DNA of 53,769 bases from an uncultured bacterium (GCA_903994795.1 CAJEYI010000003.1:1-53769); one strand, 5' to 3'. Counted from the stretch's first letter, positions 13,885-52,323 are shown. A program made the numbers and translations. The notes: generated by a model not told the origin, from the letters alone.

Positions 13885-13941
13885 AAAACTCAGAAAAACT
13901 TTAGAACACTTTGAAGATTATTTCATCACTGAAATTATAAT
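13885..13941 (+). promoter_or_regulatory. Repeated promoter module, copy 1
   Basis: AAAACTCAGAAAAACTTTAGAAC (13885-13907), TTATTTCATC 10 nt later, TATAAT at 13936-13941. Confidence 0.8.
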
Positions 13942-13949
13942 ATGAATTG

Positions 13950-14261
13950 ATGCAGGTAATTACTCATTCTTCAGTCAAAGATTTTTTCTTGAAGTTAGAT
14001 AGCGTAGTTAGTGTCAAAGTTGATAAGTTAGTTCATCGCCTGAAAATTTATAGAAGAGAATTGCACATGCCTGACGCTAAGCCAATTGGATCTGGACTAT
14101 GGGAATTACGAAGCAGAGGACACCCAGCAATTCGAATTATTTATGGATTTTACGAAGATAAAGCAATATTGTTATTTGCATTCAAGAAGCAGGCTAATGC
14201 AATAAGGTCTCACGATTTAGCATTGGCACGAAATAGATTTAATAAGTTTTGCGATAAATAA
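13950..14261 (+). CDS. RelE/ParE-superfamily (HigB/Gp49-like) toxin
   Basis: MPDAKPIGSGLWELR, RIIYGF, LLFAFKKQ, LALARNR; AT-rich. Confidence 0.85.
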   Translation: MQVITHSSVKDFFLKLDSVVSVKVDKLVHRLKIYRRELHMPDAKPIGSGLWELRSRGHPAIRIIYGFYEDKAILLFAFKKQANAIRSHDLALARNRFNKFCDK

Positions 14262-14282
14262 TCTAACTGATATTATGCATAT

Positions 14283-14477
14283 ATGAACAAAGATGAATTT
14301 ATTCCTTTCTCAGAAATACATGATAGAGCAATGCTAGATCCTGAATTTCGCAGATTATATGAATTACCTGACGAAGAAGATTTGGCCATGCGAGCATTCA
14401 TGGATGCAAGAATCGAGGCTAAGAAAATGAAGGAGAATCAACTTCGTGCTTCAGGATCACCGCAGTTTGCCACCTAG
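14283..14477 (+). CDS. HigA-like antitoxin N-terminal part, lacking the HTH
   Basis: MLDPEFRRLYE...ARIE resembles the N-terminus of XRE-type antitoxins that follow Gp49-like toxins; it ends before any HTH. Confidence 0.6.
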   Translation: MNKDEFIPFSEIHDRAMLDPEFRRLYELPDEEDLAMRAFMDARIEAKKMKENQLRASGSPQFAT

Positions 14478-14501
14478 AAAAGCCTGTGGTATCTTCTATC
14501 T

Positions 14502-15203
14502 ATGACTACCGATACATCGGCGCGTGCTAATGTTGAACGCCTCTTTAAGACAGGCGCTCATTTTGCACAGCTAAAAAGCCGCCGCCACCCTTCAATGAAG
14601 CCGTTTGTTATAGGATCTAAATCAAAAGTCGAGATTTTCGACCTTGCAAAGACCGATGCCCAGCTTCAGGCTGCAAAGGAGACCATGAAGGCTCTAGGAA
14701 GAGACGGAAAGCTTGTGCTTTTCGTGGGGGGAAAAAGTGAGGTTGGGCCAGCTATTAAGGATGTAGCAAATAGAATTGGACAGCCATATGTAGCTGGACG
14801 ATGGCTCGGAGGAACTATCTCAAACTTCGTTGAAATCAAGAAGCGAATCGACCGGCTTGCTGATCTCGTGCAGAAGCGCGATTCTGGTGAGCTTGCAAAG
14901 ATGTACACAAAACTTGAGCGCGTATTCATCGACCGAGAGATTGAACGTCTTGAAACTCGTCTCGGAGGAATTTCACAGCTTACTCGAAAGCCGGATGCAT
15001 TTGTTATTGTAGACACTCGTCACGAATCACATGCTACAAAGGAGGCTCGTGACGCGCGCATTCCAGTTATTGGTGTAATGAGTTCAGACTGCGACTTGAG
15101 CGATGCTGCATATCCTGTGGTAGTAAATGACGCATCACGTGAGACAGTGAAGCTTGTTCTTGGAGAGCTTTCTGATGCGTACGACGAAGGTCGCAAGGCG
15201 TAA
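14502..15203 (+). CDS. rpsB: 30S ribosomal protein S2
   Basis: GAHF, HPSMKPF, RWLGGTISNF, LGGI, NDAS; upstream of tsf. Confidence 0.97.
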   Translation: MTTDTSARANVERLFKTGAHFAQLKSRRHPSMKPFVIGSKSKVEIFDLAKTDAQLQAAKETMKALGRDGKLVLFVGGKSEVGPAIKDVANRIGQPYVAGRWLGGTISNFVEIKKRIDRLADLVQKRDSGELAKMYTKLERVFIDREIERLETRLGGISQLTRKPDAFVIVDTRHESHATKEARDARIPVIGVMSSDCDLSDAAYPVVVNDASRETVKLVLGELSDAYDEGRKA

Positions 15204-15337
15204 GTAAGTGGCGCGTCGCGAAAAGTTCCTGTGAGGCTCGGTGCGGGACCCAGGAATATTTTAAGGTCATCTCGCAATTCAGACCAAAATATTCCATCCC
15301 TGCGCCTCGCTTCTCGGAAGCCTTTCGCTTTGCTTAC
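15204..15337 (-). repeat. Long imperfect hairpin element between rpsB and tsf (possible distant relative of family A)
   Basis: Nested stems GCGAAA/TTTCGC, GAGGC/GCCTC, GGAATATTTT/AAAATATTCC; minus strand begins AAGGCTTCCG like family A. Confidence 0.55.
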
Positions 15338-15412
15338 ACACATACGCTTGTCGAGATCCTCGCGAAGCGCAGCATATTTTAGTACAATTAAAACATAAGT
15401 AATTTTAACGAC

Positions 15413-15997
15413 ATGGAAATCACAACTGACACAATTAAGGTTCTTCGAGACAAGACTGGTGTATCTATCATGCAGTGCAAAAAGGCACTCGAAGAAGCGG
15501 AGGGCGACATGGACAAAGCTGAAGTAATTCTTCGCAAACGTTCAGGTGCTGCCGCAGATAAGAAGGCTGACCGTGAGCTCGGTGCTGGCGCAATTGGTGT
15601 ATATGTCCACGAAGGAGCTATTGGTGCCATGGTGCTTCTTTCTTGTGAGACAGACTTTGTTGCTCGCAATGAAGAATTCCCGGTGCTAGCGCGTGAAATC
15701 GCAATGCAGGTAGCTGCAACAAACCCTACATACCTTTCAGATGCTGAAATCGCTCCTGAGGCACTTGAGGCGGCAAAGGCAGTCTTCCAGGCAGAAGTTG
15801 CTGATAAACCAGCTGAGATGCAGGAGAAGATCCTAGAAGGAAAGATGGCTTCATACTTTAAGGATCAGGTTCTTATGAATCAGCCCTTTATTAAGGACGA
15901 AGGAAAGACTATTCGCGATCTCATCACAGAGGCTTCTCAGAAGTTTGGTGAGCGTGTGGAAGTGTCGAAGTTTGTACGCCTCTCAGCACGAGGTTAG
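15413..15997 (+). CDS. tsf: Elongation factor Ts (short form)
   Basis: LRDKTG..MQCKKAL, CETDFVARNEEF, AMQVAA. Confidence 0.97.
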   Translation: MEITTDTIKVLRDKTGVSIMQCKKALEEAEGDMDKAEVILRKRSGAAADKKADRELGAGAIGVYVHEGAIGAMVLLSCETDFVARNEEFPVLAREIAMQVAATNPTYLSDAEIAPEALEAAKAVFQAEVADKPAEMQEKILEGKMASYFKDQVLMNQPFIKDEGKTIRDLITEASQKFGERVEVSKFVRLSARG

Positions 15998-16002
15998 TCT
16001 CA

Positions 16003-16416
16003 ATGCTTTATCTCATACTAATTCTCGCCAGTATCGGACTATTTGCAGCGTTCCTCGGACTAACCGTTCTTGAGGCCCGTTCTGGCACTCGAGTGCTCGC
16101 TTCACAACGCACAAAGCTCGATAAAATCATCGCTCAGTATACGTTTATAGCAAAACACGTAGATTGGGGAGCTTTTGTGAAAAGCGCCCTCCAGAGCGCA
16201 TTTGAGCGGGTTATACACGATGTTGCACAGGTAAGTCTTATTTGTGTGCGGTTCCTTGAGCGTCAGCTCACAGGGCTTATTCGCACTCTCCGTACTCGCC
16301 GACCAAACATGCTAGCACCGAAGCCATCTCGCACTCCTATGCTCGTGCAGATGAGTCGGTTCGTACGTAGACGACTTAGGATCTTGGGAAAAAAGCTAGA
16401 ACACGACGAGTTCTAG
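16003..16416 (+). CDS. Hypothetical membrane protein
   Basis: N-terminal TM and basic C-terminal part; directly follows tsf. Confidence 0.7.
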   Translation: MLYLILILASIGLFAAFLGLTVLEARSGTRVLASQRTKLDKIIAQYTFIAKHVDWGAFVKSALQSAFERVIHDVAQVSLICVRFLERQLTGLIRTLRTRRPNMLAPKPSRTPMLVQMSRFVRRRLRILGKKLEHDEF

Positions 16417-16461
16417 GAAATTTTGCTCCTTTTCAAAGGAGATGATATTGTAGGTACTATT

Positions 16462-16537
16462 GCCGCCTTAGCTCAGTTGGTAGAGCAACACTTTTGTAAA
16501 GTGAAGGTCCCCAGTCCGAATCTGGGAGGCGGCTCCA
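16462..16537 (+). tRNA. tRNA-Thr(UGU), CCA encoded
   Basis: GCCGCCT/AGGCGGC acceptor stem, GCTC-AGTTGGTA-GAGC D arm, loop TTTGTAA, CCCAG-TCCGAAT-CTGGG T arm, TCCA end. Confidence 0.93.
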
Positions 16538-16543
16538 AATCGT

Positions 16544-17248
16544 TTATTTCTTGGTAGCTTTTGTGCTTGTAGCAGCAGTGCTTGTCGCGAATAGTGACGC
16601 AGGGAAGTTCTTCTGGAAATCAGTGAGGTTCGTAAAACCATAGTACTGTTTGTGATTAATAACGAATGCAGGAAACTGAGGCTGTATTTTTTCCACCTGC
16701 TCAAGTGTCTTGAGTGCTCCGAGGTTGAGATTGTAATCGAAGGAATACACGCGGATAGATGGATACGTTTGACGAAGGTAGGAAAGTGCATAGCTCGCTC
16801 GGTCACAGGTATCCTTACACTCGCCAGAGTTTGTGTAGAAGTAGAGAACGACAGTTGGGTTTAAGTGACATGTCTTCGCGAGTTGTTGAGTCAGGATATA
16901 GTCTCGGATTTCGAGGAGTGTGTACTGGTTTTTTAACTGCACAACCTGTGGGTCTTTAATGCCGAGTTTGTCTTCGGTGTATGAGAGTTTATCTCCGATG
17001 TCACTTACTTCTTGTGAAAGGAGCGTGTCTTCAGTTGAGGATCCTTGTGTGAAGTTTTCACATGGAGCGTTTTCTAGAAGTGCATACTGAGTTTCAACAG
17101 AGAGGGTTTCAGTTGAAAGTTGATTCTCGATAGTGCTAAGTTCTGCTACGCGCTTTTGATTTAGATAATTGATAGCGTAGACAACTGTGCTAATAAGCAC
17201 AACAGTGATAACAAATGAAATGATGATGTTTCGGTTTAGGATAGACAT
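16544..17248 (-). CDS. Membrane-anchored protein with coiled coil and thioredoxin-like C-terminal domain
   Basis: N-terminal TM; VVLYFY...CKDTC...IRVYSFD...FPAFVIN resembles a Trx fold. Confidence 0.7.
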   Translation of the reverse strand: MSILNRNIIISFVITVVLISTVVYAINYLNQKRVAELSTIENQLSTETLSVETQYALLENAPCENFTQGSSTEDTLLSQEVSDIGDKLSYTEDKLGIKDPQVVQLKNQYTLLEIRDYILTQQLAKTCHLNPTVVLYFYTNSGECKDTCDRASYALSYLRQTYPSIRVYSFDYNLNLGALKTLEQVEKIQPQFPAFVINHKQYYGFTNLTDFQKNFPASLFATSTAATSTKATKK

Positions 17249-17286
17249 AACTGTAATTATTTAAATAAATCGTACCATACTCGCTG

Positions 17287-18528
17287 CTACCTCCATGCAC
17301 GACGAGTTCCTGTAAAGAGGTCGTATGCGGAGCGTATGAGCCAAAATGGGGCAATAAAACCATATAGGAACAGGTAGGTAACAATGCCGATAAAGAGGTC
17401 GCCAGGAGTTTTGGAGATTTTCTTCCCCAGAAGCATGATTGCCACTCCGCATGTCAGTGTAAACACACTAAGGACGAGTAGCGCTGTAAGTGGTACGTAG
17501 AACCACGAGAATTCAGTGAAGTGCGGCATAAGTGTGTATGAGAGAGGAACGCCAGAAGTAATCGTGTAGCGCTTCACGATATTGATAATGAATTGTGCAA
17601 TGATCACAACAAACATAAGTATGCCGCTTACGTTTGCAAGGAGGCCTAATGGAAGCATGATGATACCAAGTGTGCCGAATTTCGGATTACCTATCATGTC
17701 GTTATAGTCGTAGATCACATTTCGAAGGAATCCTGTGGTCCAGCGGGTACGCTGCTTTATAAGCGCAGGAATGGACTTCGGTGTCTTTGTGTATACGCGA
17801 GCTCGTGGCGCATTTTCTATAAGGAAGCCAGCGCGCTGCATGCGGAGGGCCATTTCAAGGTCTTCGGTGTTGTGGCCTTTGTGGAAACCGCCGACGGAGA
17901 GAATCATATCTCGACGATAAAACGAAAATGGTCCAGGTGTCACATAGAGACCATTGAGCGAAGAAATAACGTGACGAAGTGTGATGCCGTGAATGTAGTC
18001 AGCGTGCTGCATTTTTTCAATCCAGAGCTTTGGTTCATGCACTGACATTGCGGCGGTGACAGCACCAACTTTAGGATCATCAAAATAGCCGATGATTTCT
18101 CGAAGTGCATCTGGTGCGACAAATGAGTCAGCGTCGAGGCATCCTACGAACTCTGCCTGTGGTGACATCTCGATTCCAAGATTCACTGCACTATGTTTTC
18201 CTCCGTTTTCTTTATGGATAACGGTAACCTGTGGGGTACCAATAAAGGTATCCATGACTTTGGCAGTGCCGTCAGTTGAACCATCATCGACGAGGACAAT
18301 GGTGAGGTTCTCTTGCGGGTAGTCGAGAGCCAGAAGCGAGTCGACTGTTCCTTTTATTGTGTGCTCTTCGTTCCAGCAAGGGACAATGATTGCGATGTTT
18401 GGTGTCTTTGTGGAAAGGGTCTGTGCGCGTCGAGTTTTCGCTGGTGCTGAGAGGAATGTCACTAGCAAAAACACCTCAAAAAAGATGGCAACGAATAGAA
18501 ACGGGTAGGTGAGTACCTCGAGAGACAT
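17287..18528 (-). CDS. GT2 processive membrane glycosyltransferase (PgaC/IcaA-like)
   Basis: IIVPCWNEE, DDGSTD, DADS, TED and QRTRW (QxxRW) motifs with flanking TMs; start set at ATG 18528. Confidence 0.92.
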   Translation of the reverse strand: MSLEVLTYPFLFVAIFFEVFLLVTFLSAPAKTRRAQTLSTKTPNIAIIVPCWNEEHTIKGTVDSLLALDYPQENLTIVLVDDGSTDGTAKVMDTFIGTPQVTVIHKENGGKHSAVNLGIEMSPQAEFVGCLDADSFVAPDALREIIGYFDDPKVGAVTAAMSVHEPKLWIEKMQHADYIHGITLRHVISSLNGLYVTPGPFSFYRRDMILSVGGFHKGHNTEDLEMALRMQRAGFLIENAPRARVYTKTPKSIPALIKQRTRWTTGFLRNVIYDYNDMIGNPKFGTLGIIMLPLGLLANVSGILMFVVIIAQFIINIVKRYTITSGVPLSYTLMPHFTEFSWFYVPLTALLVLSVFTLTCGVAIMLLGKKISKTPGDLFIGIVTYLFLYGFIAPFWLIRSAYDLFTGTRRAWR

Positions 18529-18564
18529 ATAGTGGGATTGTTGTGTAGTATAGCAAATTATCGT

Positions 18565-18679
18565 GAAAACCGCGAGATATGCTTTCAAAAGGTACGCCGT
18601 ATTTTTCTGCTGAAAAATCGTCTCGCCCTCGCGTCGTCACGCTCCGGAAGCCCTTTTGAAAGCACATCTCGCGGTTTTC
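18565..18679 (-). repeat. Palindromic intergenic element, family A copy 3 (reverse orientation, short variant)
   Basis: 28-bp inverted arms with one mismatch (G.T on the minus strand); minus-strand core GGGCTTCCGGA-GCGT gacg ACGC-GAGGGCGAG...TTTTTCAGCAGAAAAA...CGTACC. Confidence 0.85.
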
Positions 18680-18816
18680 GTACGAATGATAAAGTGGCGT
18701 GCTGAGAATCAGTTGGAGTGCTTAACTGCCAGTGTGTTAAAAGTAACACCCACGCCTTCGCGAAATACTCCGATGCTCTACTTCGCGGATGAAGAAATAA
18801 GCGGTATACTCGTGAC

Positions 18817-19641
18817 ATGAATGAAGGACGATTGCATCCTATAACTGTGGCAGTACGCGAGATTGCGGACATTTTTGGCCGTATGGGTTTTGGTGTTGCG
18901 TATGGTCCGGAACTTGAGGATGAGTGGCATAACTTCACGTCGCTCAATGTTCCTGCTGATCATCCTGCGCGAGATATGCAGGATACATTCTGGTTGGGAG
19001 ACGCGGTGGCTACGGGTGTGGTAGGCGGGACTAGTGCAGTGGGCATCGAAGACAGGCGTGCAGAAGATGAAAAGAATCGCGTACGAAACGTGATGCGTAC
19101 GCACACGTCCCCAGTGCAAATGCGTTATATGGAAGAGCAGATGGAAAAAGGTATTCTTCCGCCGTATCGGATTATCGTTCCAGGAAAAGTTTTTAGAAAC
19201 GAGGCAACAGATGCAACACACGAAGCACAGTTCTATCAGAACGAAGGGCTTGTCGTGGGTGAGGGAATTTCTCTTGCGAACTTAAAGGAAACGCTCGAGC
19301 AATTTTTTAAAGAATATCTAGATAAGGATGCGAAGGTTCGTTTTCGTCCGAGCTTCTTTCCATTCACCGAGCCGTCAGTGGAGGTGGATGTGTGGTTCGC
19401 ACCCGTAAAAGATGGAGTCGCGCAGGCTGGACGATGGCTCGAAGTGATGGGTGCTGGAATGGTGCATCCTGACGTTCTTGAGAATGCAGGAATTGATTCG
19501 AAGAAATACCAAGGCTTTGCCTTTGGTGGTGGTATCGAGCGGCTCATCATGGTGAAGCATGGAGTGAACGATGTGCGAAATTTTCATTCAGGAGATCTTC
19601 GCTTTGTATATGGAATGGATACCATTCCTGAAAATAATTAA
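18817..19641 (+). CDS. pheS: Phenylalanine--tRNA ligase alpha subunit (no N-terminal coiled coil)
   Basis: GRLHP, HPARDMQDTF, RTHTSPVQ, FPFTEPS, GFAFG. Confidence 0.97.
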   Translation: MNEGRLHPITVAVREIADIFGRMGFGVAYGPELEDEWHNFTSLNVPADHPARDMQDTFWLGDAVATGVVGGTSAVGIEDRRAEDEKNRVRNVMRTHTSPVQMRYMEEQMEKGILPPYRIIVPGKVFRNEATDATHEAQFYQNEGLVVGEGISLANLKETLEQFFKEYLDKDAKVRFRPSFFPFTEPSVEVDVWFAPVKDGVAQAGRWLEVMGAGMVHPDVLENAGIDSKKYQGFAFGGGIERLIMVKHGVNDVRNFHSGDLRFVYGMDTIPENN

Positions 19642-19644
19642 TGT

Positions 19645-21618: not shown

Positions 21619-21635
21619 CGATCAGAAATTTCTCT

Positions 21636-21989
21636 ATGGATTACATCACAATTGATGACCTGCGTATTCAGGCAAAGCACGGGCACTACGAAAACGAACG
21701 ACGCGTCGAACAGGAATTCCTTGTTTCTCTAAAGGTTGGTGTAGACGCAAAGGATGCGGGTGCTTCGGATGTGCTCGTGGATACTATCGACTATGATGCC
21801 TTGCGCGGAATTATTGTCGATGTCTTTCATGGAAAGTCACATTTCTTAGTTGAAGCACTTGCAGAAGATATTGCTCAACTCGTACTTGAAAATACATCAG
21901 CTCAAGAAGTCACGATTACAATCAAGAAGACTGCGGTGTGGCCGAGCGGTGTTCCGGGAATAGTTCTCACACGAACTAAGTCGAATTAA
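21636..21989 (+). CDS. folB: Dihydroneopterin aldolase
   Basis: DYITIDDL..AKHG..E..Q, DTIDY, LVEALAE; start at ATG 21636. Confidence 0.88.
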   Translation: MDYITIDDLRIQAKHGHYENERRVEQEFLVSLKVGVDAKDAGASDVLVDTIDYDALRGIIVDVFHGKSHFLVEALAEDIAQLVLENTSAQEVTITIKKTAVWPSGVPGIVLTRTKSN

Positions 21990-22006
21990 TAAAATAAAAT
22001 GCATCG

Positions 22007-22336
22007 ATGGAAAAGAAGATTATAAAATTTAGAGACTTTCTGGTGCCGCTTGTGCTTAGTGGTGAAAAAGATTCGACCTGGCGACTATTTGATGATAAAG
22101 AGCTGCGCGTTGGGGATGAAGTAGATCTCATTAATTGGAATACGAAAGAAAAGTTTGCCGACGCAGCTTTAATAGAAGTTCGTGAAAAAGAATTGGGACA
22201 GCTCGAACCAGAAGATTTCGATGGACATGAGAAGTTTGAGAGCGAAGAAGCTATGTATGAATCATACAGAACATACTATGGTGATGGTGTAACTCCGCAG
22301 ACCATTGTAAAGATCATTCGTTTCAAACTGCAATAG
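22007..22336 (+). CDS. ASCH-domain protein
   Basis: VLSGEKDSTWR (GxKxxTxR), LRVGD. Confidence 0.85.
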   Translation: MEKKIIKFRDFLVPLVLSGEKDSTWRLFDDKELRVGDEVDLINWNTKEKFADAALIEVREKELGQLEPEDFDGHEKFESEEAMYESYRTYYGDGVTPQTIVKIIRFKLQ

Positions 22337-23230: not shown

Positions 23231-23286
23231 GTATTTTATTGTACGGCAAGAATCAAGAAATCATACTTTTGACGATACGATAGATA

Positions 23287-23319
23287 GAAAAACACCTCGG
23301 TTTTTCCGAGGTGTTTTTC
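23287..23319. terminator. Intrinsic terminator hairpin (bidirectional-type)
   Basis: GAAAAACACCTCGG-TTTTT-CCGAGGTGTTTTTC. Confidence 0.75.
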
Positions 23320-23400
23320 CTGTATCCCGCTTGGAAGCGGTGCAGATTGCCTTTATTAAGAATATTCTAAGTACGTATTTTGTCAACACATACATAACTA

Positions 23401-23469
23401 TGCCGGCGGAAGGAATCGAACCTTCGGGATACAAGTTGGCAATCTCACACCTGCTACCAAGCCGCCGAC
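23401..23469 (-). ncRNA. Non-canonical tRNA-like RNA (GCC/Gly-type loop, shrunken D arm, 8-bp anticodon-like stem)
   Basis: Minus strand: GTCGGCG GCT-TGGT-AGC A GGTGTGAG-ATTGCCAA-CTTGTATC CC GAAGG-TTCGATT-CCTTC CGCCGGC A; -10 box 7 nt upstream. Confidence 0.7.
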
Positions 23470-23476
23470 CGTATTA

Positions 23477-23535
23477 AGAGTAGCAATTCACTCATGAAGG
23501 AATCCTCAAGTGGTTCTAAAGTTTTTCTGAGTTTT
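23477..23535 (-). promoter_or_regulatory. Repeated promoter module, copy 2 (upstream of the tRNA-like RNA)
   Basis: Reverse complement of 23513-23535 is AAAACTCAGAAAAACTTTAGAAC; TTCCTTCATG 10 nt later; TGC-TACTCT at 23482-23477. Confidence 0.8.
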
Positions 23536-23647
23536 GCCCCCAAAATAAGAAGTGCGTCACGACTGTATTTTAGGAGGCCGTCGCGTACTCACGACGCAGA
23601 ATAGTTGAACAGTTACAGAAGATTTGTGATATAATAAAGGGACAATT

Positions 23648-30899: not shown

Positions 30900-31045
30900 A
30901 GAAAAAGCATATACAAATTAGGGGCTCTCGGAGCCGGAGTGACATTTGTGAGCCGTAAGGGGGCTGCGAACAAATTCACGCCGGCGAGAGTGAGCAAGTT
31001 TTTAGCAAAAAACTATGCGTACCCTAATTTGTATATGCTTTTTCT
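30900..31045 (+). repeat. Palindromic intergenic element, family A copy 2
   Basis: 24-bp perfect arms (30900-30923 / 31022-31045); core GGGGCTCTCGGA...GAGAGTGAGCAAGTTTTTAGCAAAAAACTATGCGTACC. Confidence 0.9.
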
Positions 31046-40499: not shown

Positions 40500-41366
40500 T
40501 TAATTCTGCACAATTACAGGTGTGCCGATGTCTGCCCAGTAGTAGAGTTTCTTTGCATTTGCAGGTGAAAGATTTACGCAACCATGTGACCACGGTTTTC
40601 CAAATTGATCATGCCAATATGCACCATGAATGACTGCTCCGTCGCGTGTGAAATACAAATCCCACGGCACACCAGGCAAGTCATATACCTGACTACTTAC
40701 GCCTGGAAGTGGTCCTTGCATGTATCGCGCTGGTGTCTTTCTAAATATCGAAAAGGTGCCGTGAGGTGTTGGTGTGAATTCAAGTCCTGTTGAAATCGGT
40801 TCCCGCATGAAAAGTGTCTCGCCATCGTATGCAGAAAGTTGTTCCTTTGATATGTCGACAACAATTCGTTTGGTCGTTGTTGCAACCGTACCTACCGGAA
40901 CGTTCTCATCACCTGTATCAGAGAAGAGTTGCACCGCATCTGCATATACATACCAGTCACTAGTGATGCGCTCGGCATAGCGAATGTCGGCGCCGGGATT
41001 TATTTTGTACCAGTCGTGCCCATCGATAGTGACGGTGCTCGCGACTTTCAGTACTACTCCTGTGCGAAGTCGCTCGACAACGGGGAATTGCGCGCCCGGA
41101 CCTGATCGCAAGTTAACGCATGTGCCAGTATAGTCCCAAGCGCACCCATCGATGACTTCGATGTAGTGAATGTCTCCAAGGCTCGTGACTATGGGAGGAG
41201 TCGCAGTGGATGGGGTCGAGGTTGCTGCAATTGGCGTAACAATAGGGGAAAGGTTTTCGGGTGTTACCCACACAATTCCAAACACCCACATGAGGAAGAA
41301 GTAGAGAAGTACGCTACCTAGAATTGGGAGAATAAGTAGTGAGTATGAAGTAGTGGAGGATTTCAT
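40500..41366 (-). CDS. L,D-transpeptidase (YkuD) with SH3-like domain
   Basis: [12 protein letters not shown]3b-like domain, IHGAYWH...SHGCVNL; start uncertain (41366/41378/41411). Confidence 0.9.
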
Positions 41367-41905: not shown

Positions 41906-41931
41906 CACACCCGCGCTCTTGCGCGGGTGTG
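41906..41931 (+). terminator. GC-rich hairpin after rpmF
   Basis: CACACCCGCGC-TCTT-GCGCGGGTGTG; weak U tract. Confidence 0.45.
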
Positions 41932-41965
41932 CTGTGTCATACATACTCATATATAGCTCTTTCAT

Positions 41966-42892: not shown

Positions 42893-43023
42893 GAGTTACG
42901 TCAGCGTGCCTCGAGTAACGCAGTCCCGAAGGCGGAGCATTGTGATTGGAGTTGCGCGACAATCTTAAAATGCGACTGTGCTGAGCCGCGGGACGAGTAA
43001 CGCCGAGGACATGCTCCCAACTC
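42893..43023 (+). other. Long structured intergenic element upstream of rnc
   Basis: Nested stems GAGTT/AACTC, AGCGTG/CATGCT, CCTCG/CGAGG, GTCCC/GGGAC; CGAGTAACGC occurs at 42912 and 42994. Confidence 0.6.
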
Positions 43024-43064
43024 GCCCCTCGCTTTTTTACCCATTTTTGGTATAAGATATCCAC

Positions 43065-43754: not shown

Positions 43755-43788
43755 TAAAAAAAGCAGGGCACAGAAGTGGTAATTGTCG

Positions 43789-43847
43789 AAAACTCAGAAA
43801 AACTTTAGAACGACTTTAGTTTTTCTTCAGCATCAAAATGCCAGACT
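43789..43847 (+). promoter_or_regulatory. Repeated promoter module, copy 3
   Basis: AAAACTCAGAAAAACTTTAGAAC (43789-43811), TTTCTTCAGC 10 nt later, degenerate TGC-CAGACT at the copy-2 spacing. Confidence 0.75.
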
Positions 43848-43881
43848 AGTTACGTGAGAGTTACTAGTTAACGCATTTTAT

Positions 43882-44145
43882 ATGTTGGAATATCGCCTAC
43901 AAGAAAAGAAAAAAAGAATTATTCAGGTGCAAGTGTTTGAGGATGAAGCGTACTTCGTAGCGACGTGTACAGATCTCGCAGTCTTCGTGCAAGGGAAGAC
44001 TCTAAATGAACTTGCTTATAACATTCGCGAAGCAGTATCGCTTGCGGTCGAGACCGAGAACTTGCCGGAAATGGGGTACGTGGAAAACCCTTTAATTCTT
44101 GCAAATATTGAACTCGGCTTTGTGAATCCTCGGAGTGGTCCGTGA
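43882..44145 (+). CDS. HicB/DUF1902-like antitoxin-family protein, orphan
   Basis: YFVATC.DL.VFVQGKTLNEL..NIREAVSL partial RNase H-like fold; no HicA adjacent. Confidence 0.75.
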   Translation: MLEYRLQEKKKRIIQVQVFEDEAYFVATCTDLAVFVQGKTLNELAYNIREAVSLAVETENLPEMGYVENPLILANIELGFVNPRSGP

Positions 44146-44205
44146 TACACAGTCATACATAAACTTGAAGAGTGTTTGCCTCAGAGTTTGGTACAATGAG
44201 GACAA

Positions 44206-46473: not shown

Positions 46474-46547
46474 TGAAACTTTTATACGGTAGCTTTTGTT
46501 TAATACTTGGGGTATAACTGTTCAACACCAGAAAGGAGGGGCTGCCC

Positions 46548-46742
46548 ATGCAAGTGTCCATGTTTACGTGCAAAGTATGCGCGAAGAAAGTAAGCCCCTT
46601 CTTCAAGGGTCCGCATTTTTCATTTCCTATGATGTGCCATCTGTCACGGGAACATGAAGAAATTAAATTTGACGGAGAAGATTATAGGCTTCATTTTGAA
46701 GAAGAAATGACTGAAACTAGCTTCTTCTGCAGCCCTGACTAG
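46548..46742 (+). CDS. Small putative Zn-finger protein
   Basis: Strong SD (AAAGGAGG) and TATAAC upstream; FTCKVC...CHLSREH. Confidence 0.55.
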   Translation: MQVSMFTCKVCAKKVSPFFKGPHFSFPMMCHLSREHEEIKFDGEDYRLHFEEEMTETSFFCSPD

Positions 46743-46876
46743 GGCTCAATAGGTCTTTTGTATGCACGCGCTGACAATCCGGTCATGTGCGTGTCGCTGT
46801 TTTATACACACTCGCATATGAAATAAAACGTAGTATCCTTACGTATCTATAGCATTACAATAATCTTTAACCCCTC

Positions 46877-48109
46877 ATGGCCGCCTTTGACTACTTTAAA
46901 ATGAATGTGCACCGCGCTGCAGCACTCCTCGGATACTCGCAGGAGACTGTCGACAGACTTCTCACTCCAGACCGGGTATTGAAGGCTCCGCTTTCTATCA
47001 CTATGGATGATGGATCTACTCAGACATTTCAGGCATACCGTGTGCAGTTCTCAAATGCTCGTGGTCCGTATAAAGGTGGTATACGATTCCATCCAGACGC
47101 TGATGAAGACGAAGTATCTGCACTTGCAGCGATGATGGCCATAAAGTGTGCAGTGGTGGACATACCGTTTGGTGGTGCAAAGGGTGGTGTTGCTGTTGAT
47201 CCAAAGAAGCTTTCACTGAATGAACTTGATGCAATTGCGCGGGCATACGTGCAGGCGTTTGTAGAACACTTGGGGCCGGAGCTTGATGTACCTGCTCCAG
47301 ACGTGTACACAAATTCGCACATCATGGGAGTGATGCTTGAAGAATACGAACGCATCACGGGAACAAAGGCACCAGCCATGATCACCGGAAAGTCGCTCGA
47401 CATGGGTGGCATAGTTGGACGTGACACTGCGACATCTGATGGCGCGATTGCTGTACTCGATGCTCTTCTTGCAGATCAGCACCGAGACATTACAAATCTC
47501 ACCGTCAGCATACAAGGCACAGGAAATGCAGGAGCGAGAGCGGCTACACTGCTCTCGGACTTAGGAGCGAAGGTTGTTGCAATGTCAGACAGTAAAGGCG
47601 CACTTCGAAATCCCGAAGGTATTGATGTGCAAAAGGTTCTCGAAAAGAAAGACGCGGGGAAGTCATTGAACGATACAGAGTTTGCAGACGAACCATTTTC
47701 TCATGCGCAGTATGATGCAGAAGAGATTATTGGTATGTCAGCAGACATTTTAATTCCTGCAGCGCTCGAGGAACAGATTCGGCTTGATAACGTCGAAAGC
47801 GTAAAGGCAAGTATCGTGCTTGAAATTGCAAATGGTCCGATCACTCCGGAGGCTGATGAATCACTCGCAGAACGACGTGTGGTGATTGTGCCAGATGTGC
47901 TAGCAAATGCCGGCGGCGTAACCGTCTCGTATTTCGAATGGTTGCAGAATCGCTCAGGAGAAACATGGACGAAAGAACGAGTCGCAGAACGACTCGAAGA
48001 AACCATGCATGACGCATATCGCGACGTCGCTGACTTCGCACTTGACCGAAACTGCACACTTAGGGAAGCTGCGTACGCACTCGCACTTGGTCGCATTAAC
48101 GACGCATAA
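46877..48109 (+). CDS. gdhA: Glu/Leu/Phe/Val (glutamate) dehydrogenase
   Basis: GPYKGGIRFH, FGGAKGG, DVPAPD, ANGP, NAGGVTVSYFEW. Confidence 0.92.
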   Translation: MAAFDYFKMNVHRAAALLGYSQETVDRLLTPDRVLKAPLSITMDDGSTQTFQAYRVQFSNARGPYKGGIRFHPDADEDEVSALAAMMAIKCAVVDIPFGGAKGGVAVDPKKLSLNELDAIARAYVQAFVEHLGPELDVPAPDVYTNSHIMGVMLEEYERITGTKAPAMITGKSLDMGGIVGRDTATSDGAIAVLDALLADQHRDITNLTVSIQGTGNAGARAATLLSDLGAKVVAMSDSKGALRNPEGIDVQKVLEKKDAGKSLNDTEFADEPFSHAQYDAEEIIGMSADILIPAALEEQIRLDNVESVKASIVLEIANGPITPEADESLAERRVVIVPDVLANAGGVTVSYFEWLQNRSGETWTKERVAERLEETMHDAYRDVADFALDRNCTLREAAYALALGRINDA

Positions 48110-48111
48110 AC

Positions 48112-48816
48112 TTACGCTTCAGGGGAGATAACAATACCTCGTCCGGCATAAAAACTCTTAAATTCCCCAATAGGGAGAGTGTGATTAATTTGTGTATCCA
48201 TACTCACAAACCCTGAAGGATTATTTATTGTTATTGTATGGTCACGCAAATTATATCCAGTGACCAAGACGAGATGTCCACCTTTTTGCTCGATAGGTGC
48301 TGTATTGTGGCCTCGTATATTTGGGTTAACTGAGACAATAACAAGTTTGCCTTTAGATAATGCATACTCAATACCCTTGATACTTAGCTTGCTGTACACG
48401 GCAGCTTTCAAATTATGCTTTTGGATCCATGTAGCAAATTCTTGATACTTCATTCCAGACAGCCCATCCTTCTCTACTGCATACACTCCTGACTTCAATG
48501 CGTCTTCTGCAAGTTCAGCAGGTGGAATTCTTTTGTGAGTAAAATACTCTAGAGCCATTGCTGCTGATGCCATGCCACACATGGTGAAAGCCCACTCCGC
48601 GTATCGTTCTGGGGACTGTGCACCAGTCTCTTTCCAGTGAGGGTCATTTATCGGTGCTAGCTCCTTCTTCAGACTCAGCTCAGCATGTTCTGGTTTTGCA
48701 AATTGGCACACATACGGAACGTTGTAGTTAGTCTTTGGTTGAATCTCTACAGAGCGAACTTTTCGTTCGTATAAAATATTTTTCGCTTCTTGTGAAATCT
48801 TATCTACTACTTTCAT
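48112..48816 (-). CDS. Peptidase C39-like protein
   Basis: VPYVCQ, MCGMAS, GGHLVLVTG, INNP. Confidence 0.82.
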   Translation of the reverse strand: MKVVDKISQEAKNILYERKVRSVEIQPKTNYNVPYVCQFAKPEHAELSLKKELAPINDPHWKETGAQSPERYAEWAFTMCGMASAAMALEYFTHKRIPPAELAEDALKSGVYAVEKDGLSGMKYQEFATWIQKHNLKAAVYSKLSIKGIEYALSKGKLVIVSVNPNIRGHNTAPIEQKGGHLVLVTGYNLRDHTITINNPSGFVSMDTQINHTLPIGEFKSFYAGRGIVISPEA

Positions 48817-48823
48817 TCAGCTA

Positions 48824-50872
48824 TTATACAACCAATGTGAAATCTAGCTCCCGTTCAAACATGCGCACGGCCGCAAGCTTCACACGTATAGGATCACCAA
48901 GTGAGTACTGCTTTTGTGTACGACTTCCGACAAGTCGGTATCGCTTTTCATCAAAGGTAAAAAAGTCATCGCCGAGATTTCGTACGCTCACCATACCTTC
49001 TGCGTGAGTTTCCTTGAGTTCTACATAGAGACCACGATCAGACACACCACTAATCACTGCATCAAACTCCTGACCAACTTTGTCTTCCATGAATTCCACG
49101 AGCTTCATCTTCACTGAGTCACGCTCTGCATTTGAGGCTGCAACTTCTCGTTCGCTTGAGTGAAGTGCGAGCGCATCGAGTTGATTGAGTTCTGCTTGTG
49201 TAACTTTCTCGCCATCTGAGAAGTGCTTCACCATGCGGTGTGTAAGGAGGTCTGGGTATCTGCGAATTGGGGAAGTGAAGTGGGTGTAGAAATCAAAGGC
49301 GAGACCGAAGTGCCCGGCATTGCGCGTAGTGTATGTGGCTCTGGCCATTGAGCGAAGTGCTGCAGTCTTTATTAAATATTCCTCTGGTTTTCCTTGAGTC
49401 TCTGCAAGAAGTTTATTTAAGTCCGTGCCCTTTACGTGACCAAGCTTTGACTCGAGATTGTACCCCATGACTTTCAGGAATTGTGTAAGGTCTTCGATTT
49501 TGTCTGGGTTTGGCTGATCGTGCACACGGTATATAACTGCACTCTCGAGTTTTGCTTTCTTTGTTTCTTCTGCTAGGTGCTCAGCAACTGACTCGTTTGC
49601 GAGAAGCATGAAGTCTTCAATGAGCAGGTTGGTTTCCTTTCGTTCCTTCAGGACGACTTTGATTGGTTTGCCATTTTCGTCGAGCAAGACTTTTATCTCT
49701 GCAGTATCAAATGCTATTGCACCTTTTGCGACACGTCGCTCACGAATCTTTCGAGCAAGTGCAGCAATTGCAACAAGTTCATCACGCATATCGCCTTTAC
49801 CAGTGTCGAGTACTTCCTGTGCGTCTTCGTATGTAAATCGTCGGTCAGAGTGAATGACTGTTTCGCCAAACCATTTCTTCTGCACTTCAGCATTTTGATT
49901 TAGCTCAAAAACTGCTGATACCGCGAGACGTGGCTCGTGCGGATTAAGTGAGCAGAGGTTATTTGAGAGTACTTCTGGAAGCATTGGAATCGTACGGTCC
50001 ACTAGGTATACAGAGGTCGCACGATTTTGTGCCTCGTCATCGATAGAGGTACCAGGACGTACAAAGAATGACACATCCGCAATGTGTACTCCCACTTCGA
50101 TATTTCCGTTCTCTAGGAATTTCACTGAGAGCGCGTCATCAAAGTCTTTCGCATCGAATGGATCGATGGTGAATGTATGCGTATCACGGAAATCTTTTCG
50201 GCGTCCAGATGCAATTCCTTCTTCAGCTTCCTTTGCAATCATTGCCTTGCCTCCAGTCTCGTCAGTTGCTTCTAGCTTCTTCGCTTCAGAAATTACGCCA
50301 GGCGGGAAGTCAGAATGGAATCCTTGCGAGAGTGCGAGTGCGCGCATTTCAGTCTCGTGTACACCTGCTGCACCGATAACTTCTTCAACCACACCCCATG
50401 GAAGTGCAGGAGCTTGGTCAGTTGGTTCGAGCCATCCTTTGAAACGAAGTACGACTTTAAAACCGACAGGGAGGTTTTCGCCACGGACGATAAACGGCGT
50501 GTACATTTTCTTTGAGTCAGCAATCATGAGGACTTGTCCGTGTGGCGCTCCAGCGTTTTCGTCTGGTATGAGTTTTCCAACGAATGTCTCACGTGCGCGA
50601 CTTACAATCTCCACCACCTTTCCATTCTCGCGCTTCGCGCGAGTCCTCGGATCTTCAACCATTCCCACAGACACCACACGCACAACGTCACCAGGAAATG
50701 CACCCAGCACATCCTTTGCAGGAATGAAGAGGTCTTCTCGGGGTGCGGCAGTCGGATTCTTTTGTAGGGTCTCGTCGTCCTCGACAGGGAACTTGAAAAA
50801 CCCCATGCCCTTGGCAGTCATTGAAATTGGCCCGACGTATGTTTGCTGGCCTGCGTAGGTAGTGTCTTGCAT
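48824..50872 (-). CDS. rnr: Ribonuclease R (RNB + S1)
   Basis: FTIDPFDAKDFDDA, HIADVS, IEDFMLLAN, YTHFTSPIRRYPDL, C-terminal S1. Confidence 0.95.
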   Translation of the reverse strand: MQDTTYAGQQTYVGPISMTAKGMGFFKFPVEDDETLQKNPTAAPREDLFIPAKDVLGAFPGDVVRVVSVGMVEDPRTRAKRENGKVVEIVSRARETFVGKLIPDENAGAPHGQVLMIADSKKMYTPFIVRGENLPVGFKVVLRFKGWLEPTDQAPALPWGVVEEVIGAAGVHETEMRALALSQGFHSDFPPGVISEAKKLEATDETGGKAMIAKEAEEGIASGRRKDFRDTHTFTIDPFDAKDFDDALSVKFLENGNIEVGVHIADVSFFVRPGTSIDDEAQNRATSVYLVDRTIPMLPEVLSNNLCSLNPHEPRLAVSAVFELNQNAEVQKKWFGETVIHSDRRFTYEDAQEVLDTGKGDMRDELVAIAALARKIRERRVAKGAIAFDTAEIKVLLDENGKPIKVVLKERKETNLLIEDFMLLANESVAEHLAEETKKAKLESAVIYRVHDQPNPDKIEDLTQFLKVMGYNLESKLGHVKGTDLNKLLAETQGKPEEYLIKTAALRSMARATYTTRNAGHFGLAFDFYTHFTSPIRRYPDLLTHRMVKHFSDGEKVTQAELNQLDALALHSSEREVAASNAERDSVKMKLVEFMEDKVGQEFDAVISGVSDRGLYVELKETHAEGMVSVRNLGDDFFTFDEKRYRLVGSRTQKQYSLGDPIRVKLAAVRMFERELDFTLVV

Positions 50873-50924
50873 TTCTTATACTCTAGCAGATTCCGAACTT
50901 TCTGCATCAAGGTTGCTTGCTCTT

Positions 50925-51281
50925 CTATAAAAATTTCCTAATCAAAATAAAGCCAAGGCAAATAAGTCCAAACACTGCAGCCCACACAACAGCCGCTGCA
51001 GCTAAATCTTTACTACGTCCAATCGCTTCATCGTGCTCAGGGTGGAGTTTGCTGAGCGCCACTTCGATTGTAGTGTTTTGAAGCTCGGTGACCATTACAA
51101 AGAACCAGCAGAAGATTAGTAGGAGCATCTCATTAGCAGAAAGATGGAATAGGAAATAAACGATGGGGAGTCCAATAATACCGAGTCCTATCTCGATCTG
51201 AATGGCCTCGTCATGTATAAGCGCATACTTCAATCCCCGGAATGGGTGCGAGAATCTGTTAATCCAATACTTCATACACAT
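50925..51281 (-). CDS. dgkA: Diacylglycerol/undecaprenol kinase
   Basis: ELQNTTIE, IGRSKDLAAAAV, three TM segments; start may be 51275. Confidence 0.88.
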   Translation of the reverse strand: MCMKYWINRFSHPFRGLKYALIHDEAIQIEIGLGIIGLPIVYFLFHLSANEMLLLIFCWFFVMVTELQNTTIEVALSKLHPEHDEAIGRSKDLAAAAVVWAAVFGLICLGFILIRKFL

Positions 51282-51353
51282 ATCTTACCTTATGTGCCGT
51301 CTGTGTGGGACTAGTTGATTATTTATGGGTACTCTGGTAGTCTACTCCTCATT

Positions 51354-51848
51354 ATGTTGATGATCCGTTTCCAGCGAATTGGCCGAAAGAACGACCCGGC
51401 TTTTCGTATTGCTGTGCTTGAGAAGACTTCTGGCCCAAAAGCTGGTAAGTACGTTGACCTCGTTGGTTCTTATAACCCAAAAACCAAGGCAACTACCGTC
51501 CTCGCTGAAAAGGTGAAGGAATGGGTAGCTAAAGGCGCTCAGATCTCACCAAGCGTTATGAACCTCCTTATCAAGGAAGGTGTATACGAAGGAAAGAAGC
51601 ACGCAGTTGTCTCAAAGAAGAATCTTGAGAAGAACGTAGCGGCAAACGAGGAAAAGGCTCGAAAGGAAGCTGAAGCAGTTGCCGCAGCAGCCGCCGCAAA
51701 GGTAGAAGCAGAAAAGGCTGCCGCAGAAGCTGCAAAGGCCGCAGCCGAAGCCCCTGTTGAGGAAGTAGTAGAAGCACCTGCTGAAGTAGCAGAAGAAACT
51801 CCTAGCGAAGAAGCTCCTGTAGAAGAAGTTGCTGTTGCGGCTGAATAA
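51354..51848 (+). CDS. rpsP: 30S ribosomal protein S16 with Ala/Glu-rich tail
   Basis: MLMIRFQRIGRK..P.FRI, GSYNP, GAQISPSV; start at ATG 51354. Confidence 0.96.
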   Translation: MLMIRFQRIGRKNDPAFRIAVLEKTSGPKAGKYVDLVGSYNPKTKATTVLAEKVKEWVAKGAQISPSVMNLLIKEGVYEGKKHAVVSKKNLEKNVAANEEKARKEAEAVAAAAAAKVEAEKAAAEAAKAAAEAPVEEVVEAPAEVAEETPSEEAPVEEVAVAAE

Positions 51849-51925
51849 GCCCACGGCTGAGTGCGAAGCGCAGCTTCGCACTGATGTCTTAATTCTTTAT
51901 CCGTATTCTGTAAACTCTGAACTCT

Positions 51926-52240
51926 ATGGACCAAGACCAGCTATTCCTCGAACAAGTAGTAAAAGCACTAGTAGATAATTCAAACGACGTCGTTATTACA
52001 CGTACTGTCGACGAAATGGGTGTACTCCTCACACTCACCGTGCATCCAGACGATATGGGAAAGATTATCGGTCGTGATGGAAACATCGCAAAAGCTCTCC
52101 GTACACTACTTCGTGTAGTGGGAATGAAGCATAATGCTCGCGTAAACCTCAAGATCAACGAACCAGTTGGTGGAAAGCGTGTGGGACTTGAGCACGAAGA
52201 AAAAAGTGTCGATCAAGTGGTTGATGAGCTCGGGCGTTAG
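51926..52240 (+). CDS. khpA: KH-domain RNA-binding protein KhpA
   Basis: DMGKIIGRDG..AKALRTLL; follows rpsP. Confidence 0.92.
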   Translation: MDQDQLFLEQVVKALVDNSNDVVITRTVDEMGVLLTLTVHPDDMGKIIGRDGNIAKALRTLLRVVGMKHNARVNLKINEPVGGKRVGLEHEEKSVDQVVDELGR

Positions 52241-52265
52241 TCCACAACAGTTTCCCAGAAAGTCG

Positions 52266-52323
52266 AAAACTCAGAAAAACTCCAGACTGTCCACAGAATT
52301 ATTTCATCTCGGGTTGGTATACT
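52266..52323 (+). promoter_or_regulatory. Repeated promoter module, copy 4
   Basis: AAAACTCAGAAAAACTCCAGACT (52266-52288), TTATTTCATC 10 nt later, TGG-TATACT at 52318-52323, ATG 7 nt after. Confidence 0.8.

Follow-up and report, generated by a model that had tools for sequence, protein, structure and literature searches.

An 11-bp-phased direct-repeat module as a candidate activator-dependent promoter of a competence-type regulon in an uncultivated member of the Patescibacteria

The Patescibacteria (candidate phyla radiation, CPR) are mostly uncultivated and carry few transcription factors, and to our knowledge almost nothing is known of their gene regulation. The present analysis concerns a conserved non-coding module that occurs four times in a stretch of 53,769 nucleotides (GCA_903994795.1 CAJEYI010000003.1:1-53769; hereafter the window, meaning this whole stretch), which is contig C3 of the genome under study, G000, an uncultivated patescibacterium (Paceibacteria-like) whose assembly comprises 902 kb in 66 contigs, with a G+C content of 45.7%, and is 96% complete; all other G numbers denote congeners. 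On balance, and judged from sequence, the module is best read as a set of about 30 activator-dependent promoters of a competence-type regulon, for which an OmpR/PhoB-family response regulator, here called RR-X, is the candidate regulator.

An earlier note on the window had described a 23-mer, AAAACTCAGAAAAACTTTAGAAC, in front of accessory genes, and a search of the window finds it exactly at 13885-13907 (+), 23513-23535 (-), and 43789-43811 (+); no match with up to three mismatches appears in any of 100 shuffles of the window. The fourth site, at 52266-52288 (+), is indeed a variant: it differs from the 23-mer at more than three positions, shares the exact 16-mer AAAACTCAGAAAAACT, and aligns over the module of about 70 nt. 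The motif TTnnTTCA lies 10 nt past the 23-mer in all four copies, and a -10-like box lies 28–30 nt past it (TATAAT, TACTCT, CAGACT, and TATACT), both as the note had described. The four copies extend as follows.

13875..13952, + strand: module copy 1, with four 11-bp-phased CTTyAG units, the -10 box TATAAT at 13936-13941, and an ATG at 13950 (nhmmer E 1.1e-12)
23468..23545, - strand: module copy 2, with the -10 box TACTCT at 23477-23482 and a predicted RNA 5' end at about 23469-23470 (nhmmer E 2.2e-14)
43779..43856, + strand: module copy 3, with the -10 box CAGACT at 43842-43847 and a predicted start at about 43852-43854 (nhmmer E 8.9e-16)
52256..52333, + strand: module copy 4, with the variant units CTCCAG and CCACAG, the -10 box TATACT at 52318-52323, and an ATG at 52331 (nhmmer E 7.8e-12)

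A count of four copies proves to be an artefact of the window. When the whole of G000 is searched with the 16-mer, allowing two mismatches, 21 sites are obtained, the core being exact in seven copies and carrying one mismatch in ten more. An nhmmer profile retrieves 28 copies from the 902-kb genome (E < 1e-3), and R1, a sequence-only covariance model built from 25 module copies, retrieves 33 (E <= 0.01).

The alignment of 25 copies reveals four units with the consensus CTTyAG, centred at about -58, -47, -36, and -25 when the start is placed at the ATG, and extending over approximately -62 to -57, -51 to -46, -40 to -35, and -29 to -24 if transcription starts at its A. Invariant A's stand at alignment columns 18, 29, 40, and 51, and the autocorrelation of the information content is maximal at lag 11; the tandem phasing that had been reported as about 10 bp is therefore real, but its period is exactly 11 bp and the units number four. 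The repeats are direct and not inverted, form no dyad, and reach into the -35 region. Downstream of them, a -10-like TAnAcT occupies columns 64-69 (T64 A65 .. T69) and the ATG occupies columns 76-78, so that the -10 box lies 6–7 nt before the ATG or the RNA 5' end. No TTGACA-like hexamer is present 16–18 bp from the -10 box in this alignment, and the TTGA-like part of unit 3 sits 19–20 bp from it.

The position of the module relative to its targets is equally constrained. All 28 copies point toward a downstream open reading frame (ORF) or RNA, and an ATG- or GTG-initiated ORF of at least 50 amino acids (aa) begins at an offset of 60–67 from the first A of the motif in 19 of the 28, compared with 1276 of 20,000 random anchors (6.4%) and 1555 of 22,587 TANNNT anchors (6.9%). 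Among the remaining nine copies, three end 7–8 nt before a tRNA-like RNA, and six have leaders of about 12–85 nt, in front of the 87-aa ORF of copy 3, PIF1, a coiled-coil gene, NDK, a ThiF-family gene, and RadC. The fixed geometry of the ORF starts indicates leaderless transcripts, and a weak -10 box without a -35 element is the usual signature of activator dependence. The sequences flanking the module are unrelated among copies on both sides, and no inverted repeat is found within or around the copies, although target-site duplications were not specifically searched for; the module thus does not behave as the end of an insertion sequence or MITE. The alignment and the start geometry together make it very likely that the copies are promoters with leaderless starts.

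The ordinary promoters of the genome provide a comparison. rnpB, at C41:988, carries an extended -10 element, TGTGGTATAAT, as it does in 27 congeners, and the small RNA (sRNA) genes and the region ahead of 16S rRNA carry TTGACA/TTGACG-N17-TAnnnT. By this comparison of sequences, the module is a separate promoter class, distinct from the ordinary promoters. In nearly all congeners, the extended -10 of the RNase P RNA gene lies about 6–7 nt before the mature 5' end (loci L031-L058), a distance at which the primary transcript would need no 5' processing. dprA appears to be leaderless throughout the genus, with TAGTATACT-N6-ATG in many genomes, adjoining the start of a divergent gene (L290-L317). 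Two assignments of module copies to stable RNAs were considered and rejected: the copy at C8:41099 does not drive RNase P RNA, which is encoded at C41:988, but lies in front of a ThiF-family ORF whose leader measures about 50 nt, and the copy that might have driven the rRNA operon has a tRNA-like RNA as its target, TTGAyA-type and TTGACG-N17-TAGTAT sequences lying further downstream, before 16S.

Pfam scans of the genes downstream of the module in G000 identify a T2SSE ATPase (7e-109), which is followed by T2SSF and small ORFs and constitutes a ComG-like pilus operon, as well as DprA (3.7e-52), ComEC (8e-37), a ComM-type Mg-chelatase-family ATPase (6.9e-77), RadC, UPF0102/YraN, and a PIF1-like helicase. 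A shared motif, the hallmark of a competence regulon, is thus located upstream of comEC, dprA, the pilus ATPase operon, comM, and radC in G000, and the module is also found at comEC, dprA, and the pilus ATPase gene in G106 and at radC in G072. Housekeeping-type genes and enzymes are represented by NDK, a class I Trp/Tyr-type aminoacyl-tRNA synthetase, a subtilase, an LCAT-like lipase, an NYN-domain protein, and the ThiF-family protein; toxins by two Gp49/HigB and two to three MazF proteins; and selfish-type genes by three LAGLIDADG and two HTH_23 proteins, with two coiled-coil proteins and several small ORFs of no assigned family completing the set. From these family assignments, the conserved core of the target set is recognizable as the classical late-competence genes, and the four targets in the window as accessory members. 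The earlier statement that the targets are all accessory accordingly describes the four genes of the window and does not extend to the genome-wide set, which includes ComEC, DprA, the pilus operon, ComM, RadC, and YraN. Likewise, the regulon of toxin/antitoxin and RNA effectors that the note envisaged is supported as a regulon, but it comprises about 30 promoters and its core consists of genes for DNA uptake and processing.

Several of these target loci show features of their own. One MazF target is a 606-aa ORF at C24:2979-4799 (L124:480-2297) that carries a MazF/PemK domain (26-124) and an EPSP-synthase-family domain (181-594) in frame, its counterpart in G106 being a 129-aa MazF-like protein alone; the ORF is either a real fusion or the product of a missed stop or frameshift. 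The LAGLIDADG and HTH_23 genes that lie behind modules adjoin tRNA genes (Ser, Gln, Ile, and Gly, with Met upstream in C57) at C8:39167-39916, C14:20524-21314, C1:59193-59957, C4:8181-8918, and C57:1-435, and in four cases the tRNA lies within about 20 nt 3' of the ORF or overlaps it, which suggests either module-ORF-tRNA co-transcripts or tRNA-targeted insertion. ARAGORN predicts 36 tRNAs and a tmRNA in G000, with no tRNA-Asp, no tRNA-Phe, and a single CAT-anticodon tRNA; the absent tRNAs may be unassembled or unusual.

The module is retained beyond G000. An exact search with a 20-mer in 40 relatives returned nothing, which reflects the limited sensitivity of that search, as profiles later found copies. 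The profile scan of the genome and its relatives that the note had proposed, with the downstream genes tabulated, yields 28–33 copies in G000 and R1 sites in 12 of 100 congeners: 20 in G106, six in G055, three each in G072, G067, and G020, and single weak ones in seven others. G106 shows the same module-to-start geometry as G000, and GTCAAAAACTCAG and the unit positions are kept between the two genomes. Orthologous genes behind the module in G106 include DprA (67% identity), PIF1 (74%), the subtilase (67%), and a 50-aa ORF (80%), and the module also precedes ComEC, T2SSE, MazF, both coiled-coil genes, YraN, and four tRNA-like RNAs in that genome; in G072, it precedes RadC. Protein identity between G000 and G106 is about 65–78%, barely above that to other congeners, and the retention of the module at orthologous genes despite this divergence is indicative of purifying selection on a sequence that is read out, and not of recent copying.

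The inference of the earlier note that a tandem-binding transcription factor is involved fits both the exact 11-bp phasing and the association of the module with an OmpR/PhoB-family regulator. G000 encodes three receiver domains, two complete OmpR/PhoB-type regulators, and two histidine kinases, one of which adjoins the second OmpR-type regulator (C7:37119-37760). The candidate itself is located as follows.

C31:690-34, - strand: RR-X, an OmpR/PhoB-family response regulator, whose gene runs into adapter sequence at the contig start

The C-terminus of RR-X recurs, with two residue differences, after adapter sequence inside contig C8, where its end lies 22 nt upstream of the C8:41099 module. The sequences at L023:2060-2115 (C8 ~40860-40915) and L121:1-52 (the start of C31), which we take to be Illumina adapter-like, mark these spots in C8 and C31 as chimeric or artificial assembly joins.

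OmpR-type DNA-binding domains number three in G000, five in G106, and two in G055, and one each in the module-poor G017 and G003, whose sole OmpR-type regulator belongs to another orthologous group. RR-X orthologues are clearly set apart from paralogues (identity of at least 54%, versus 47% at most) and are present in 16 of 100 congeners and in 8 of the 12 R1-positive genomes, including all five with at least three R1 sites, and the predicted recognition-helix region, SNTIExH[IV]LSLR[KR]K, is conserved in 12 orthologues. Inspection by eye identifies a module-like phased-repeat promoter after the RR-X stop codon in G000, G067, G094, G107, and G116, where the next gene encodes a ThiF-family protein (G000, G067, and G107), a GAF histidine kinase (G094), or an AdoMet-decarboxylase-family protein (G116); in G072, a 7TM kinase lies downstream of RR-X without a module-like promoter. 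The arrangement of RR-X, module-like promoter, and ThiF-family (E1-like) gene is seen at L023:2290-2812 (C8:41089-41611), L131, and L140, and the leader of about 50 nt of the G000 ThiF-family gene starts with a hairpin. Among 17 loci from other Patescibacteria/Paceibacterota, 11 of 15 R1 matches (E <= 1) lie within 150 nt of the regulator gene, and these loci contain visible tandem units such as TTTTTCTTTAC-TTTTTCTTTAC. Upstream of dprA, 4 of the 5 RR-X-positive genomes (3 of 4 when G000 is set aside) have a module-like sequence (nhmmer E < 1), versus 1 of the 25 RR-X-negative genomes, most of which have the bare TAGTATACT-N6-ATG at this gene. Taken together, the phased repeats give good grounds to expect that some activator binds them, while the proposal that RR-X is this binder falls a little short of an even chance. 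The HTH_23 proteins encoded behind two modules were also considered as an auto-regulated master and rejected, as several copies of their family are found in 65 of 101 genomes, module-poor genomes among them, and G106 yields only a weak partial match; the family is probably a selfish gene family.

In the favoured mechanism, a winged-helix OmpR/PhoB-family regulator would occupy the four units as two dimers in tandem, arranged head-to-tail along a single face of the DNA. The bound regulator would replace the contact between sigma region 4 and the -35 element and recruit RNA polymerase, and the transcript would begin either with the A of the ATG, as a leaderless mRNA, or with the first base of the small RNA. 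The core of the regulon would comprise ComEC, DprA, the ComGA/GB-like pilus operon, ComM, RadC, YraN, and the PIF1-like helicase, with accessory genes such as HigB/MazF toxins, homing-endonuclease-like genes, coiled-coil proteins, and tRNA-like RNAs having been recruited to the regulon or having joined it, and the whole set would be induced together as a competence-like programme.

A number of observations weigh against this interpretation. With respect to the module itself, every start site is deduced from geometry alone, the distal 23-mer is near-identical in five copies, which exceeds the typical degeneracy of binding sites, and a generic three-repeat pattern gives no phyletic signal, G000 alone standing out (12 matches vs 4 in the control). 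With respect to the targets, comFC carries at most a two-unit version of the module, with a leaderless ATG, as judged by eye; ComEA was not found in G000; and NDK, the aminoacyl-tRNA synthetase, and the many selfish genes are ill-suited to a pure competence programme. The link to RR-X is correlative, lies within one genus, and is confounded by relatedness, since the positive genomes may form a single clade. The RR-X gene is split over two contig ends, so its adjacency to the module is a reconstruction, and RR-X scores below every NCBIfam equivalog cut-off. Most R1 matches near RR-X in other genomes are weak (E > 0.001), and phased YTTYA pairs, at 4.76 per kb in the RR-X flanks, 1.67 in other non-coding sequence, and 0.21 in coding sequence, exceed the other non-coding level only about 3-fold (20 vs 6 events). 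Nor do the two distributions coincide fully: G067 has the closest RR-X (73%) but 3 weak R1 matches, while G106 (65%) has 20; 8 of the 16 RR-X-positive genomes have no R1 match; G112 is RR-X-positive and has no module at dprA; and in G018 (84% complete), module-like sequences are present and RR-X was not found.

The genes that follow copies 1, 3, and 4 in the window are listed below; the RNA behind copy 2 is described further on.

13950..14261, + strand: HigB/Gp49-family toxin gene, 103 aa, leaderless by geometry, with its ATG at offset 65 (PF05973, E 2.7e-13)
14283..14477, + strand: 64-aa ORF, putative partner or antitoxin, with no Pfam, NCBIfam, or PDB match and absent from the prfA-rpsB gap in G106 and G017
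43882..44145, + strand: 87-aa ORF with a leader of about 28 nt, HicB-like by weak leads (2yzt_A, E 0.0015), with no Pfam or NCBIfam match
52331..52762, + strand: 143-aa coiled-coil ORF, leaderless by geometry, with a weak leucine-zipper match and a 37% identical ORF behind the module in G106

The HigB-like toxin assigned to copy 1 is borne out by the Pfam match and also matches TIGR02683 (RelE/ParE) weakly in NCBIfam, and the Pfam scan agrees with the coiled-coil description of the ORF behind copy 4. The HicB-like label of the 87-aa ORF has weak leads in its favour, which include Atlas clusters named HicB/DUF7387/DUF1902 at 0.90–0.91, but no family match in Pfam or NCBIfam. The claim that the antitoxins lack a DNA-binding domain of their own goes as far as the absence of Pfam and NCBIfam family matches.

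Synteny with relatives agrees with the description of the genes behind copies 1 and 4 as accessory inserts among core genes, and both copies, by this comparison of gene order, sit in recurrent insertion hot spots. The prfA-rpsB gap is empty in G106 and G017, and in G067 it is occupied by two unrelated genes inserted on the opposite strand; the khpA-trmD gap is empty in G067, G072, and G017, contains a different two-gene pair in G055, and contains the module with the coiled-coil gene in G000 and G106, where copy 4 thus has an orthologous module and gene downstream of khpA. The inserts at L223:2400-3070 (G067, prfA|rpsB) and L229:900-1500 (G055, khpA|trmD) read as toxin-antitoxin-like from their translations. 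At these two spots, the module may have come in together with the gene or may have been gained later.

These hot spots, which are empty or otherwise occupied in relatives, bear on the possibility that the module is a mobile promoter, that is, a promoter-bearing segment that spreads by recombination or together with single-gene cassettes, and that the copies are alike because they are recent. Promoter reuse of this kind is documented (PMC3575422), and the exact 16-mer core in seven copies (one mismatch in ten), the many selfish targets (HigB twice, MazF two to three times, LAGLIDADG three times, and HTH_23 twice), and the multi-copy state of the HTH_23 family across the genus (65 of 101 genomes) would all suit it. 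On the other hand, the presence of the module at orthologous dprA, comEC, pilus ATPase, PIF1 helicase, and subtilase genes in G000 and G106 argues for an old element under purifying selection, and variation is limited to certain columns while others are invariant. The flanks are unrelated on both sides, no internal inverted repeat or fold is present, and orientation and start-codon distance are fixed. The 20-mer gives no match in viral contigs, and its 11 matches in metagenome contigs all lack the remaining module and lie in AT-rich DNA, 9 of the 11 loci having 27–33% GC. Pairs of window copies share 75% and 64% identity over 59 nt and 74–78% over 63–66 nt, which is under the definition of 80% over 50 nt. 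A mobile promoter or recombination site, which the note had offered as one of its two main explanations, is consequently judged unlikely, though less firmly so for the accessory members, and the mobile cassette is kept as a secondary idea.

Competence regulons under alternative sigma factors are known, and a dedicated small sigma-70-family protein might read the module without a separate activator, as ComX or SigH do in Firmicutes. G000 has three small sigma70_r2 proteins besides its primary sigma, one of which has its gene about 1.3 kb ahead of the C7:27469 module, in a synteny that recurs in G106, and the lack of a -35 element at the proper distance would fit such a reader. However, a conserved block of about 45 bp with four equal 11-bp-spaced units extends far beyond sigma contacts, the -10 box resembles the ordinary TAnnnT of the genus, and the module-poor G017 and G003, with seven and five sigma70_r2 matches, are as rich or richer in small sigmas, all of which renders this alternative unlikely.

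Stimulation of promoters by A-tracts and UP elements is well established, and the module contains 11-bp-phased A-runs ahead of its first two units, which could bend the DNA and strengthen a weak -10 box in a factor-independent, UP-like manner. This is very improbable, as invariance is not confined to the A-runs but lies in the T, C, A, and G of CTyAG, and the sequence ahead of units 3 and 4 is T-rich or mixed. Moreover, the module is missing from the promoters expected to be strongest (rnpB, the region ahead of 16S rRNA, and the sRNA genes) and from dprA in 24 of 25 RR-X-negative congeners. Conserved non-coding blocks before unrelated genes are sometimes riboswitches or leaders (PMC3575422), but it is hardly credible that the module is a transcribed 5' leader RNA or processing signal with transcription starting upstream, given that RNAalifold predicts 0 base pairs over 25 copies, Rfam gives no match to the module, a -10-like hexamer stands 6–7 nt before the ATG or RNA 5' end, and the upstream sequence is unrelated among copies, with no shared promoter there.

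The target of copy 2 is an RNA that belongs to a wider family, and it is followed in the window by a second, shorter RNA with its own promoter.

23401..23472, - strand: tRNA-like RNA of about 70 nt behind copy 2, with a 7-bp acceptor stem, a T arm with a TTCGATT loop, and an enlarged variable middle (R2 E 5.6e-14)
23359..23386, - strand: sigma70-type promoter TTGACA-N16-TATTCT for the antisense sRNA, an arrangement that recurs in 7 G000/G106 cassettes
23288..23353, - strand: sRNA, about 66 nt long and closed by an intrinsic terminator, with 20–25 nt at its 5' end antisense to the middle of the tRNA-like RNA

The RNA is tRNA-like, as had been noted, yet it is called neither by ARAGORN nor by the Rfam tRNA model and is not a canonical tRNA. 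Within the family, the acceptor stem (7 bp) and the T arm (5 bp) covary, while the middle is variable and contains a 9–12-nt loop, and the R2 model places the family in 22 of 100 congeners (E <= 0.001), although the weaker members may be ordinary tRNAs. In seven cassettes of G000 and G106, which include, besides the one in the window, those at L022:376-567 and L020:308-518 (G000) and at L079, L081, L083, and L092 (G106), a TTGAyA-N16-18-TAnnnT promoter lies 9–20 nt after the tRNA-like RNA and is followed by an sRNA of about 64–78 nt with an intrinsic terminator. When the seven tRNA-like RNAs and seven sRNAs are combined in a 7x7 table of duplexes, the cognate pair is the best in every row and column (-25 to -45 kcal/mol vs -8 to -28 for non-cognate pairs), the pair in the window reaching -37.4 kcal/mol vs -11 to -28. 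Across nine further genomes, a TTGAC(A/G)-type promoter is present in seven, six of which have a cognate duplex of -30 to -47 kcal/mol; the cognate duplex of G067 reaches only -10 kcal/mol, though the promoter is present, and in G072 an antisense segment is visible by eye and the promoter was missed by the search pattern. In RR-X-positive genomes, phased repeats tend to precede the tRNA-like gene, and G066, G073, and G097 have the -10 box only (by eye, with weak R1 scores).

At E <= 1, Rfam gives no match to the paired RNAs except a weak, sub-threshold BjrC68 match over one sRNA, and no literature description of pairs of tRNA-like and antisense RNAs in Parcubacteria was found. It is conceivable, though only as a tentative proposal built on these sequence features, that the module serves as the on-switch of a two-component DNA-uptake programme that also fires leaderless tRNA-like RNA effectors of a new kind, each of which could be sequestered over 20–25 nt of its middle by its own constitutive antisense sRNA. 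Such an arrangement would represent an all-RNA effector/anti-effector pair, toxin-antitoxin-like and coupled to competence.

The window also contains a second RNA candidate, at 4771-4926 and 30900-31045, with a conserved core of 110 nt that is 81% identical between the copies, the only two in the genome. Both cores are closed by a perfect stem of 24–29 bp whose sequence is wholly different between the copies, and pairing that is kept while the sequence differs is as expected for a structured RNA. Rfam gives no match at E <= 1 for the copy at 4771-4926.

If the favoured interpretation is correct, the module would provide a directly testable CPR regulon, with a long, information-rich cis element, about 30 targets, and one named candidate regulator. 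It would show selfish genes (toxins and homing-endonuclease-like genes) coming under a host programme, and it would imply that some lineages of the genus rewired dprA from a bare -10 box to an activator-dependent promoter. The module would also offer a strong, tightly positioned leaderless promoter part for CPR genetic tools. The available texts on Patescibacteria competence promoters and regulons and on CPR leaderless promoters yielded no description of the motif. In its available part, PMC12641261 lists one CPR species in its table of transcription start sites. The com genes are reported to be conserved in Patescibacteria, and comEC to be required for transformation in a Saccharibacterium, for which natural competence has recently been demonstrated by experiment, in PMC10633639, from whose available text the word stem 'regulat' is absent.

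Leaderless promoters, with the -10 hexamer 6–7 nt before the start codon, are common in Actinobacteria and Deinococcus, and the module resembles them in its TAnnnT followed by an ATG after 6–7 nt, the same geometry as that of the genus-wide TAGTATACT-N6-ATG of dprA. These promoters need no upstream repeats, whereas in the module a weaker -10 box is combined with a 45-bp array of repeats. Putative mobile promoters, defined by at least 80% identity over at least 50 nt at -150 to -50 from the start codon of non-homologous genes (PMC3575422), are similar to the module in that related upstream sequence precedes non-homologous genes in one genome. They differ from it in that the window copies show 64–78% over 59–66 nt, lie at -75 to -1, and are kept at orthologues across species.

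Competence motifs in other bacteria include ComK boxes and ComX cin-boxes. In the available text on Haemophilus influenzae, the competence regulon includes a horizontally acquired toxin-antitoxin operon, toxTA (PMC6957337). The Sxy/CRP regulon of that organism, as far as the text was available, is a close parallel to the target set, with one cis motif before comEC/rec2, dprA, comM, radC, and the pilus genes and with a toxin-antitoxin system included. The module is unlike CRP-Sxy, ComK, and sigma-driven competence in consisting of four direct repeats with an OmpR-type candidate regulator. In the architecture of its repeats, the module is comparable to PHO-box operators: the accessible description of Streptomyces coelicolor PhoP gives 11-nt direct repeat units, at least two of which are needed and up to six of which occur per operator (PMC2275107), and that of the cryo-EM structure of Mycobacterium tuberculosis PhoP shows tandem dimers that displace the contact between sigma R4 and the -35 element (PMC11825685). 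The module shares with these operators head-to-tail 11-nt repeats, of which it has four between about -62 and -24, and the lack of a proper -35 element, but its unit, CTTyAG, is unrelated, no phosphate genes are seen among its targets, and its transcripts are predicted to be leaderless; RR-X in turn differs from the PhoB equivalog, scoring 178 bits against a cut-off of 296.

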